From: Chrysomallon squamiferum | Lineage: Eukaryota > Animalia > Mollusca | Assembly: GCA_012295275.1 (NCBI GenBank) | Contig: CM022671.1 | Location: forward strand, 2,356,001-2,420,000 | Length of the DNA stretch: 64,000 bases | Reading direction: 5' to 3' | Shown: piece after piece, positions 14,592 through 20,355 of the stretch | Position numbering within the stretch: the first letter of the stretch is position 1 | Layout of the letters: every line of letters starts with the position of its first letter | Made by a program: the position numbers and the translations under genes | Notes under the pieces: generated by a model | Seen by the model: only the letters and a program-made list of their open reading frames with translations | Databases searched by the model: none | What the model was told of the DNA's origin: nothing

Positions 14592-17500
14592 TCATAGGAA
14601 TAAATTCATCGATGAGTCAAAGTAAGATACATTCTCTCTAGTCGACCTGTAATTAAAATAAACAAATACTATTTACTTAAACAGAAATATATAAATAGTT
14701 AAACATGGAGATTTAGAAACATGGATTCTTGCATACACACATACAAACGAACGAGCATATATACTGACAAACATACATATTTACATACCTACCTAATTCC
14801 TACATTCATTAAAAAACAGTTATGGCGATTTTAATTTTTACCAATCAACAAAATTGTTTTTATTTTCATTTCGAGCGGTACTGTATATGCGATTTTAAAT
14901 TTCCTAAATAACATTAATTTGCGAAAAACGGATAAAAGTTACAATTTAAAAAGAATGTTTCACAGAATTTTTTTTTTTTATCTGGGTTCAGTAGCAGGAC
15001 GTTTTCTTACTATGTTGTAGATATAAAACAGCTTCTTTCACCTTTATTTCAGTCTTCTTCTTTATTCTACCGTATTGTTCTGAAAGTCAGTCACTGTCGA
15101 TTTCCTTCTTCAAGCAAAGGACTAGAATATATAGGAAGGAGACATATACACATATAGATAGATAGATAGACAGATAGATAGATAGACAGATAGATACAGA
15201 CAGACAGAAATAGAAAAAGAGACAGATATACATAGAAGTAGGTACATAGAAATAGAGTATGAAAAACAGATACATTTTCATACTCCATCTCAGCTGAATT
15301 CCCCCTCTGTAATTAAAATGAACACATTTTATTTAATTAAACAGACATAATAAGTTTGATATAGATAGAGAGATATAGAGTTAGAAACATGAATTCTAGC
15401 ACACATACATCATGTAAACATACATACGAACGGTCATACGCACGAACATATATACATACATACATGCATGCACGCATACATAAAAACATACAAATATATA
15501 TATATATATATATATATATATACACACACACATACATATATATATACACACAAACACACATATATAGATAGATTACAGAGAGAGACAGACAGGCAGACAG
15601 GCAATCAGACAGATAAATAGATAGGTAGATAGATGGACAGACAAACAAACAGACATATACATGTATATATGAAGTGAAAGAAAGAAATAGAAAAAGGGAA
15701 ATAGATATGCAGGCATCGCGACTGATAGACAGATAGATAGACGTAGAAGTGGTACACATAAATAGATAGAGTGTGAAAAACAGACAAATTTTCTTACTTC
15801 ATCTCAGCTGTATTCTCACTAGTCGATCTGTAATTAAAATGAACAAATATTAATTAATTAAACATACATAAAAAGTCAGAAATAGATAGATATATACATC
15901 CAAACATACATACAAACGAACATAAATACAAACATACATATAGAGTCAATGTGTATTTAAAATGAACAAATAAACAGTCATAAAAAGTCTCATATAGATA
16001 GATAAAGGTAGTTAGAAACATGCATTCTATACCACATACATCACGCAAACATGCAAACGGACATACATACATACATACATATATATATATAAACAAAGCA
16101 ACATACATACGTACACACATATATACATATATATATGTATGTATGTATGTATATATATATGTACACATACACATACACATACACACCTATATATAGATTA
16201 TAGAGAGACAGACAGTTCAATCATACAGATAAATAGATAGATAGATAGATAGATAGATAGACAGAGAGAGACACACAGACAGACAGTTACATTTATATTT
16301 GCAGTGACAGATATAGATAGATAAAAACATGCATTCTAGCACACATACATTATGCAAACGTACATACGAACAATCATACATGTGTACATACATACGTACT
16401 TACGTATATACATACATCCATACATATATACATACATATATGCAGTCACCCAAATACAAGGAAATATACAAGGAAATATATATACGTACATACGTATATA
16501 CATATATACACACACATACAACATATATAGATTACAGAGAGACAGACAAACAGGCAGAGAGGGAATCAGACAGATAGATAGATAGATAGATAGATAGATA
16601 GATAGATAGATAGATAGATAGATAGATAGATAGATAGATAGATAGATAGATAGATAGATAGATAGATAGATAGATAGGTAGATAGATAGACAGATAGATG
16701 GACAGACAACCAGACAGATACATGTATATATGGAGTGAAAGAAAGAAATAGAAATAGGGAAATAGATATGTAGGCATCGTGACTGACAGACAGATAGATA
16801 GACAGAGAAGTGGTACACATAAATAGATAGAGTGTGAAAAACAGATAAATTTTCTTACTCCATCTCAGCTGGATTCTCACTAGTCGATCTGTAATTAAAA
16901 TGAACAAATATTAATTAATTAAACATACATAAAATGTCAGATATAGATAGACAGATACATTCATGGAAACATACATACAAACGGACAGACATACATAAAA
17001 ACATACATACGTACACACATATATGCATACATACATACACACATGTATATATATATATACACACTCATATATAGATTACAAAGAGACAGAGAGAAACCAT
17101 CAGACAGATAAATATATAAATAGATAGATGGACAGACAGCCAGACGGTTACATTTGCAATCAAAGAAAGAAAGAAATAGAAATAGAGAAGTAGATATGTA
17201 GATATCTCGACTGACAGACAGATACGTAGAAGTAGGTACACATAAATAGATAGAATGTGAAAAACATAAATTTTCTTACTCCCTCTCAGCTGTATTCTCA
17301 CTAATCGATCTGTAATTAAAATGAACAAATATTAATTAATTAGACATAAAAAGTCTGATATAGATAGAAAGATATAGTAAAAAACATGCATTCTGGCACA
17401 CATACATCATATAACATACATACGAACGGTCATACATGCATACATACATACGTACGTACATACATACATACTTACATATATACATACATTACATACTTAC

Positions 17501-20355
17501 ATATATACATACATTACATACATACATTACATACATACATTACATACATACATTACATACATACATTACATACATACATTACATACATACATTACATACA
17601 TACTTACATATATACCTACATTACATACATACATTATATACATACATTACATACATACATTACATACATACATACATACATTACATACATACATACATGC
17701 ATGCACGCATACATAAAAACATACAAGGAAATATATATACGTACATACATGTATACATACATATATACACACACACACATATATACATTACAGAGAGAGA
17801 GACAAATAGATAGAGAGGGAATCAGACAGATAGATAGATAGATAGATAGATAGATAGATAGATAGATAGATAGATAGATAGATAATAGGTAGGTAGGTAG
17901 GTAGATAGATAGATAGATAGATAGATAGATAGATAGGTAGGTAGGTAGGTAGGTAGGTAGGTAGGTAGATAGATAGATAGATAGATAGATAGATAGATAG
18001 ATAGATAGATAGATAGATAGATAGATAGATAGATAGATAGATAGGTAGGTAGGTAGGATGTAGATAGATAGATAGATAGATGAACAGACAAGCAGACAGA
18101 CAGATACATGTATATATGGAGTGAAAGAAAGAAATAGAAATAGAGAAATAGATATGTAGGCATCGTGACTGATAGACAGATAGATAGACGTAGAAGTGGG
18201 TACACATAAATAGATAGATTGTGAAAAACAGATAAACTGTCTTACTCCATCTCAGCTGTATTCTTACTAGTCGATCTGTCATTAAAATGAACAAATATTA
18301 ATTAATTAAACATACATAAAAAGTCTGATATAGATAGAGAGATATAGTTAAAAACATGCATTCTGGCACACATACATCATATAACATACATACGAACGGT
18401 CATACACGCATACATACATACCTACTTACATATATACATACATACAGGCATGCATACATAAAAACATACAAAGAAATATATAAACGTACATATATATATA
18501 TATGTATACATACACCCACAGACACATATACGAATTACAGAAACAGACAGACACGCAGACAGACAAGCAGACAGACAGTCAGACAGATAAATAGATAGGT
18601 AGATATATGGACAGAGAAGCGGGTACATATAAATAGAGTGTGACAAAACAGATAACTTTTCTTACTCCCTCTCAACTGGATTCCCAACAGTCGATCTGTT
18701 ATTAAAATGAACAAATATTAATTAATTAAACAGACATAAAAAGTTTGATAGAGATAGAAAGATATAGTTAAAAACATGCATTCTGGCACATATACATCAT
18801 ATAACATACATACGAACGGTCATACACGCATACATACATACGTACGTACATACATACATACTTACATATATACATATATTACATACATACATTACATACA
18901 TACATGCATGCACGCATACATAACAACATACAAGGAAATATATGTACGTACATACATGTATACATACATATATATATACACACACATATATACATTACAG
19001 AGAGACAGACATCGAGGCAGAGAGGGAATCAGACAGATAAATAGATAGATAGATAGATATATAGATAGATAGATAGATAGATAGATAGATAGATAGATAG
19101 ATAGATAGATAGATAGATAGATAGATAGATAGATAGATAGATAGATAGATAGATAGATAGATAGATAGGTAGGTAGGTAGGTAGGTAGGTAGATAGATAG
19201 ATAGATAGATAGATAGATAGATAGATAGATAGATAGATAGATAGATAGATAGATAGGTAGATAGATAGATAGATAGATAGATAGATAGATGAACAGACAA
19301 GCAGACAGACATATACATGTATATATGGAGTGAAAGAAAGAACTAGAAATAGATAAATAGATATGTAGGCATCGTGACTGACAGACAGATAGATAGACGT
19401 AGAAGTAGGTACACATAAATAGATAGAGTGTGAAAAACAGATACATTTTCTTACTTCATCTCAGCTGGATTCTCACTAGTCGATCTGTAATTAAAATGAA
19501 CAAATATTAATTAATTAAACAGACATAAAATGTCAAATATAGATAGATAAAATGAACAAATAAATGAGATATAGTGTGTATGTGTGTGTGTAATGATGTA
19601 TAATTGGTAGCAAATCAAGATATAGATTATTAAATACATGCATTCTTGCACAAATACATCATGCAAACATGCAAACATACATAAGAACGAACATACATAC
19701 GTACATACATTCATATATACATACATGCATGCATGCATGGATGCATGCAAATATACAAAGAAACATATATACATACATATATATATATATATATATATAT
19801 ATGTATGTATATACATATATATATATATAATACATACATACATACATACATAATATACACACACAGACACACACACACATACAGATATATAGAAGACGGA
19901 TGGATGGATAGAGATAGAAAATGACAGTGATAACATGAGAGACAGACATTTAAATAGATAACAAATAAATTTATAGATAGATATACACAGATAGATAGAT
20001 AGATAGATAGATAGATAGATAGATAGATAGATAGATAGATAGATAGATAGATAGATAGATAAAGTGATAGACAGGTTTTTTCATTCATCTCATTTGAATT
20101 CCTCGAAATCAGGCATTAATGAAATTAATTTAATTAAATTTAACCTTAAGTAGACAGATAAATATATAGACAAATGGACAGATATATAGATCAACCCAGA
20201 AAATGGTAGATACAAAAATAGACAGGCAGAAACAGAGATATATAGCTAAATATAATTAGATACATAGACAGACAGACAGACAGATAAAGAGATAGAGAAA
20301 GGTATGGACAGACATATTTTCTCACATGTTCTGATTTGAATTCCGCCGTCTCCTT
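14592..20355 (-). repeat. Tandem array of ~0.4-1 kb units, each a 30-nt micro-exon plus a microsatellite-rich intron ((GATA)n, (TACA)n)
   Basis: Minus-strand unit core 'ttgttcattttaat(t)acag|ATCGACTAGTGAGAATACAGCTGAGATGAA|gtaag' at 19484-19455, 18695-18666, 18275-18246, 17309-17280, 16888-16859, 15827-15798. Variants at 20355-20326, 15306-15284 and 14646. Confidence 0.85.

Follow-up and report, generated by a model that had tools for sequence, protein, structure and literature searches.

Does a series of 30-nucleotide (nt) units on the minus strand, embedded in microsatellite-rich introns, encode part of the cytoplasmic tail of a membrane protein in the mollusc Chrysomallon squamiferum? The stretch that raises this question is 64,000 nt long (assembly GCA_012295275.1, contig CM022671.1, positions 2,356,001 to 2,420,000; hereafter the window), and all positions below count from its first letter. 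The array of micro-exon units in the window is a real feature. We consider it rather probable that it is a tandemly duplicated block of intron plus 30-nt unit, lying in a spliced gene for a membrane protein with EGF-like sequence, and that its six intact units (M1–M6) are spliced as in-frame blocks of 10 residues. That M1–M6 are coding in some form, whichever of the readings discussed below applies, appears quite likely.

The six intact units, all in phase 2-2, lie on the minus strand from 19484 to 15798, and in each a CAG acceptor is followed by exactly 30 nt and then by a GTAAGA donor. None of them contains a stop codon in the frame dictated by the upstream transmembrane (TM) exon. The original prediction, made from the letters alone, had described minus-strand units with an acceptor, exactly 30 nt, a donor, phase 2-2 and no stops, and for M1–M6 this was borne out. 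It had also stated that every unit keeps this pattern, which holds for the same six; four further units are decayed or altered, and the donor of M0, a 30-nt exon ahead of the array, is GTGAGA. The spliced translations that it gave were reproduced except for one residue, since M6 joined to the candidate last exon at 15121 yields Asn and not Lys.

Between any two units, 1–7 of the 30 nt differ, and the flanks are 60–97% alike. The units are thus homologous neighbours, equal in exon length and phase and related in their flanks as well, which makes them a tandem exon duplication. M0 is identical to M1–M6 at 14–15 of 30 positions (shuffle p 0.007–0.019 in the three units tested, all three), and on this comparison M0 and the array units are related sequences. 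When both strands of the whole window were searched for YAG-N30-GTRWG, 26 matches were obtained, seven of which are M0–M6. The acceptor block is unique to the array: all nine of its matches in the window, allowing up to 8 mismatches of 30, fall within 14676–19514.

RNA contigs from four runs of one study (X1–X4) were aligned to positions 21395–21610 only, the region of the TM exon. The X1 contig spans precisely 21443–21593, and contigs of X3 break at the same two positions. In both runs the contigs extend beyond these positions, on one side into the leader exon (its terminal 30 nt) and on the other into M0, where 29 of 30 letters are alike; the overhangs on the M0 side measure 49 and 86 letters and were read for 30. 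Leader–TM–M0 junctions at the predicted boundaries are therefore present in the RNA contigs of two of the four runs. The frame is fixed by these two boundaries, at which the X1 and X3 contigs pass over into the leader exon and M0, and the gene, the frame and the splice from the TM exon to M0, all of them claimed beforehand, are supported. A single unspliced contig of X4 crosses the donor, differing at 7 of 72 positions. No contig was obtained from X2, from which nothing can be concluded. The shares of leader-exon words found in the four runs were 0.50, 0.18, 0.18 and 0.15, of which the X2–X4 values (0.15–0.18) are no evidence alone.

Compared with the window, the X1 contig has 6 substitutions (three of them non-synonymous) and a 3-nt gap in 151 nt; by its sequence, the source of the X1 RNA is an allele or a sister gene of the window copy. 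Another X3 contig (record 3; 21516–21593) carries the end of the leader exon and the first half of the TM exon, followed by a different sequence that reads as another hydrophobic helix and includes a 12-nt piece absent from the window. It is apparently a recombinant allele or a sister gene. The TM helix itself (21458–21530, minus strand) is built of Gly-Ile codon repeats with several GxxxG spacings, a spacing known as a dimerisation motif, and the RNA copies lack one codon there. Contigs end 19 and 56 letters past M0. We considered whether the assembly graph breaks there at differences between units, and rejected this explanation in view of the depth of about 4 and because variation is present in any case at 9 of 30 positions.

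Six copies of one duplicated origin are not independent, so their likeness and their freedom from stops prove little. Evidence beyond chance comes from the splice signals, because these contrast with the flanks. In a fixed block of positions −30 to −1 plus the donor, one of 36 columns varied, against 34 of 103 in the flanking intron (p 1.1e-4). When the units were left out one at a time, p ranged from 7e-5 to 0.026 and was weakest without M2. A block picked after viewing (−35 to −1 plus the donor) gave 2 variable columns of 41, against 45 of 118 in the other flank (p 2e-5). M1 and M4 agree in every letter of their 30-nt acceptors but are just 60% alike in the upstream flanks; there are no indels in the six exons, and gaps are present in the flanks. 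The contrast points to selection acting on the splicing of the units, which would fit it better than plain homogenisation. As the splice signals of M1–M6 are more conserved than their flanks, these units are likely to be coding micro-exons.

The exon letters behave differently. Variation was seen in 9 of the 30 exon columns, compared with 45 of 118 intron columns (p 0.53). For nine substitutions the chance of creating no stop is 0.66–0.82, and the absence of stops is hence uninformative. A second frame, in which two bases complete the codon, was also tried. By hand count it made 5 of the 9 changes synonymous, but it placed stops in M1 and M6 and conflicts with the frame fixed by the RNA, and it was rejected.

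Inclusion of M1–M6 adds 60 residues (19 Ser/Thr, 14 Glu and no Tyr) and brings the predicted protein to 248 residues. As far as its translation tells, the product is likely a single-pass SCARF/MEGF-like protein with an acidic, Tyr-free tail that ends in a dileucine-type motif. Whichever of M1–M6 is joined to 15121, Glu stands at −4, Pro at −1 and Glu-Glu after Leu-Leu (6/6), and the pattern [DE]xxxL[LI] in a cytosolic tail is thus formed at the predicted last junction by all six intact units. When M0 was joined straight to 15121, Gln stood at −4 and the pattern was not formed. According to PMC2882754, Glu at −4, Pro at −1 and Glu-Glu after Leu-Leu each improve endocytosis, and Gln at −4 can serve in a dileucine signal too. 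By prediction, then, the tail forms a disordered spacer in front of an endocytosis signal, the junction, the disorder and the function all being predicted. At the candidate last exon, the share of pyrimidines in the acceptor is 0.83, and the share of purines climbs from 0.30 to 0.72 across the site. AATAAA occurs 25 and 43 nt past its stop; this hexamer is frequent here, at 2.9 per kb.

Several points weigh against coding micro-exons with a role in sorting. Leaving out M2 weakens the conservation contrast, which gene conversion or non-homologous flanks could also imitate. Purifying selection on the unit peptide is not in evidence, the exon columns of the six units varying like intron. An internal GTRAG in five of the six units would yield an 8-nt exon that shifts the frame. 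The RNA differs from the window, comes from a single study at a depth of about 4 and may belong to a sister gene. RNA support also stops at M0: among contigs aligned at the TM exon only, and read for 30 letters beyond it, no read or contig shows M1–M6 or the last exon. Because Gln at −4 is also workable, the units are not needed for the motif, and no protein with such a tail was found in the protein searches.

Might the very purpose of the array be combinatorial splicing, whereby skipping of various M1–M6 subsets creates a range of tail isoforms and selection diversifies the exons, as in schistosome micro-exon genes (MEGs)? It had been claimed that any subset stays in frame, and indeed 64 of 64 subsets do so and specify distinct proteins; this is true of any symmetric exons, however, and is not evidence of use. 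At all nine variable exon sites, which are confined to codon positions 1–2, the changes are non-synonymous, as diversification would have it, but the neutral probability of such an outcome is 0.08–0.15, which is not significant. The RNA shows other variation in the family, such as the second TM helix behind the same leader-exon end. Skipping was not observed, and the aligned RNA data could not have revealed it. The donors are uniformly GTAAGA and UGC is absent within 30 nt of all six acceptors; consensus donors without UGC would suit constitutive inclusion no less than regulated skipping. Near-identical blocks on the cytoplasmic side would, moreover, give little recognition diversity. Tandem exon duplicates are reportedly used in a mutually exclusive manner as one known mode, and unit introns of at least 390 nt would give no steric reason for it. 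We regard combinatorial splicing as the purpose of the array as unlikely. We are equally doubtful of its widest form, a polymorphic molluscan EGF receptor with an inward-facing MEG-like cassette, in which a growing array of 30-nt exons, through copy number and combinatorial skipping, would vary spacer length, charge and phosphorylation sites before the dileucine signal and so tune trafficking.

The opposite possibility is that M0 is the last coding exon, either by read-through (Met and then a stop) or by splicing straight to 15121, and that M1–M6 are unspliced repeats homogenised by recent duplication or conversion. Several findings would suit it: M0 is the last element with RNA evidence, a read-through product would terminate after 179 residues, with an ATTAAA at 20134, the exons vary like neutral intron, and four units have decayed. 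Homogenisation, however, is not expected to spare an exon flanked by two invariant signals, and M0 has, like the copies, a consensus donor at exactly 30 nt. The in-frame stop is a mere part of any phase-2 GTRAG donor, and about 5 kb separate M0 from the next AATAAA, at 15333. We find this distinctly improbable. It is very unlikely, in our judgement, that the units serve in part as alternative last exons, an unused donor leading to an immediate stop and M7 or the 14646 copy providing other C-termini with or without the dileucine motif. Each unit does meet a stop one codon past its donor, but such stops are a by-product of the donor consensus, and there is no AATAAA between 20325 and 15334. The 14646 copy has a good acceptor (4/30 differences) and 17 open codons up to its stop, one Tyr among them; it resembles, however, a simple deletion spanning the donor.

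Among the altered copies, M7 is 21 nt long and in frame only if a non-consensus GAG is used as its acceptor. A 162-nt stretch between M7 and 15121 (15091–15304, minus strand) is stop-free and in frame with both; read-through from the GAG acceptor at M7 would reach the same C-terminus through residues coded by microsatellite, probably a coincidence. With four units decayed, one of them 23 nt long and frame-shifting, the array gains and loses copies. Upstream flanks and downstream flanks sort the units into different groups, and such differing groupings together with four decayed copies are expected under unequal exchange. The decayed and mosaic units demonstrate past changes in the copy number of the unit.

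From M0 to M7 the introns measure, in order, 841, 759, 390, 936, 391, 1031 and 491 nt. After removal of TCTA and TATG/TA runs they measure 605, 395, 352, 366, 331, 693 and 407 nt; five of the seven trimmed introns lie at 331–407 nt, and the two at 605 and 693 nt are those that bear remnants. The claim that intron length varies while the sites stay was correct for the 390–1031 nt between M1 and M6, but the spread is mostly microsatellite. We also compared the intron after M0 with the unit introns. It beat shuffles, but 10–37% of 637 within-array controls scored as high, and this likeness was not used.

If the preferred reading, in-frame splicing of the six intact units, is right, an M0-like phase 2-2 exon would have been copied along with its flanks, probably through unequal crossing-over within introns rich in microsatellites. 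A copy would be tolerated as long as its acceptor, length and donor persist and would decay otherwise, with selection protecting the splice signals more than the encoded residues. The length of the tail would vary mainly by gain and loss of units, inclusion being mostly constitutive and skipping incidental. The intact units would build an acidic, Ser/Thr-rich spacer before the predicted dileucine sorting signal. This Tyr-free spacer, presumably disordered, may be phosphorylated and would set the distance and charge context of the predicted C-terminal [DE]xxxLL endocytosis motif.

The array appears to catch the birth and death of exons under way, with six intact and four decayed copies in one gene. 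Its coding exons would lie inside sequence that repeat maskers discard, and in genomes rich in microsatellites the tails of further lineage-specific receptors may be concealed in the same way. Should skipping prove real and regulated, the micro-exon diversity strategy of secreted schistosome proteins would extend to a receptor, on its cytoplasmic side. With constitutive inclusion, the array is an exon-level coding repeat, unusual in layout and ordinary in mechanism. A literature search found no report of a similar array in a mollusc receptor, which is weak evidence given that most subscription papers are outside the coverage of the search. The coordinates of the features are collected in Table 1.

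Table 1. Exons, array units and altered copies of the gene (positions in the window)
Feature	Position	Strand	Description
Leader exon	24742..25121	-	Predicted signal peptide (ATG 25096), Cys-rich EGF-like region, Thr/Pro stalk, phase-1 donor; 5' boundary inferred
TM exon	21443..21593	-	151 nt, phase 1-2, Gly/Ile-rich helix; hydropathy peak 2.4
M0	20326..20355	-	30-nt exon with GTGAGA donor; encodes a poly-Arg juxtamembrane segment; RNA contigs show use of its acceptor, not of its donor
Decayed unit remnant	20084..20113	-	Mixes M0-like and M1-like motifs; no donor
M1	19455..19484	-	Intact 30-nt phase 2-2 unit
M2	18666..18695	-	Intact unit, most diverged (5-7 differences from other units)
M3	18246..18275	-	Intact unit
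M4	17280..17309	-	Intact unit
M5	16859..16888	-	Intact unit
Dead partial unit (15950 copy)	15944..15980	-	Acceptor block ends CAC, not CAG; only first bases of exon
M6	15798..15827	-	Intact unit
M7	15284..15306	-	23 nt from CAG, frameshifting; GTATGA donor
Candidate last coding exon	15091..15121	-	Pro-Leu-Leu-Glu-Glu and stop; AATAAA at 15066 and 15048
14646 copy	14592..14646	-	Unit copy without a donor, lying past the candidate last exon; may be dead or an alternative last exon

How does the gene compare with known systems? In two sources on schistosome MEGs (PMC4350168; bioRxiv 10.1101/2023.06.21.545858), runs of very short symmetric exons lie between longer introns, near-identical isoforms arise by skipping, non-synonymous change is high, and VAL-6 is a gene of which only a part is MEG-like. 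MEG products are described there as signal-peptide proteins found in secretions and made mostly by micro-exons, and the genes as restricted to flatworms. The exon layout is shared by the present gene, in which the internal exons M0–M6 are symmetric and a multiple of 3 in length (M7 is not). The product differs, and the gene does not qualify as a MEG. Seven micro-exons account for 70 of the 248 predicted residues, so that it is not mostly micro-exon-made as these sources describe for MEGs, and it would not be secreted, for between a signal-like N-terminus and the micro-exons a TM exon is spliced in. The units also lie on the cytoplasmic side of the TM helix, are near-identical recent copies and could yield isoforms by virtue of their symmetry.

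The nearest case of repeated Glu-rich exons that alter length and charge is avian fast troponin T, whose P exons are described in PMC7581897: up to seven lineage-specific exons with a repeated Glu-rich motif raise the length and the negative charge of a variable region. That protein, by the same account, is a muscle regulatory protein with shown developmental splice-in, whereas here the exons belong to the predicted tail of a membrane protein. The tail exons of PECAM-1 (CD31) are not known to be copies of one another. Its cytoplasmic tail is made from many small exons (9–16) that are alternatively spliced, and carries Tyr signals with shown effects, according to PMC2132561. The division of a tail into small exons is shared, and the units here differ in being repeats without Tyr. 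For microexons that depend on eMIC, a UGC motif near the 3' splice site is described in PMC8797185. TGC was absent from −30 to −1 in all six units, which in this respect differ from eMIC/Srrm neural microexons. A long AG exclusion zone was seen (no AG in the 43 nt examined, 6/6 units), but the TM exon has one likewise, so it is not specific.

Pfam gave no match in the leader exon, and protein searches with this exon covered 133 longer candidates and 8 of similar length, none of which reached E 1e-3. A search of representative proteins returned 95 matches at 31–49% identity; 8 of the 10 looked up were organism-named, all of them molluscan, and some were labelled SCARF2-like, CED-1-like or MEGF6. 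A neighbouring EGF exon gave 29 matches at 26–38% identity, of which the 23 organism-named ones were all from gastropods or bivalves. The microsatellite load is reminiscent of cephalopods, yet none of the organism names seen was that of a cephalopod. One locus at 35% came from 232 candidates in a metagenome scan, and a sequence search of the PDB gave a chance match only (E 0.65). The EGF-like region is short (about residues 38–98). A modest structure model, built from 6 sequences, had a mean predicted local distance difference test score (pLDDT) of 65. Its best fold match was an EGF fragment of human SCARF1 (E 2.3e-3), none being at 1e-3 or better. Molluscan MEGF10-like clusters in the Atlas (score 0.86) are a lead only.

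The gene shares the EGF-like Cys pattern with SCARF1/SCARF2, MEGF10/11 and CED-1; its best fold match is SCARF1, and its best-named sequence matches carry these labels. The SCARF, MEGF10 and CED-1 families have longer EGF arrays and Tyr motifs in their tails. The gene here differs from them in its one short Cys-rich region and in the absence of Tyr from the tail of the model that ends at 15121, and its identity to named mollusc proteins is just 26–43%. In Biomphalaria, the SudRes1 locus is a cluster of duplicated EGF-repeat/single-pass TM genes with diverse members, and the receptors described in PMC12297450 have galactose-binding and phosphatase domains. The cluster setting is shared, with several copies in the window, and the present gene differs from the receptors described there in having neither domain. 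PTC2 is reportedly another molluscan cluster of paralogous MEGF/single-pass TM genes.

The window holds a duplicated EGF-repeat gene cluster on both strands (1–8000, 11950–12760, 31700–33700, 39800–43300 and 60800–64000), with three copies of the leader-exon signal region and several duplicated EGF, TM and tail exons. The same leader exon stands before different downstream exons, with ATGs at 244 (early stop), 7760 and 25096, and a truncated copy lies near 32000; one leader exon with varied downstream exons is suggestive of exon shuffling. The 7760 copy ends in an ordinary tail, made of one exon with two Tyr motifs, and no micro-exon candidate was found ahead of its tail exon. Paralogue tails at 5237–5477 and 39803–40063 (minus strand) are single exons with two Tyr motifs each (Tyr-Asp-Gln-Ile and Tyr-Leu-His). 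Paralogues with Tyr motifs and a Tyr-free repeat tail are possibly paired receptors with different outputs. The copy at 61–63 kb looks broken by an early stop in its tail exon.

Other repeats lie around the array. The intron between the leader and TM exons contains a 45-bp minisatellite (22027–23223; 26.6 copies, 90% match), and related shorter repeats continue up to 24076. Two copies of an element of about 310 nt, 89% alike and in opposite orientation (14153–14456 and 23499–23815), flank the TM exon and the array. This inverted pair was considered as the mark of a captured cassette, but one copy lies between related minisatellite blocks, so separate insertions seem likelier. The minus strand of a 58-bp minisatellite at 34000–34884 also yields AG...GT pairs 27–33 nt apart; it looks like a simple repeat. 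In the middle of the EGF cluster, at 46560–50090 on the minus strand, lies a multi-exon gene for a subunit of translation initiation factor 2B (Pfam PF01008), presumably the alpha subunit.

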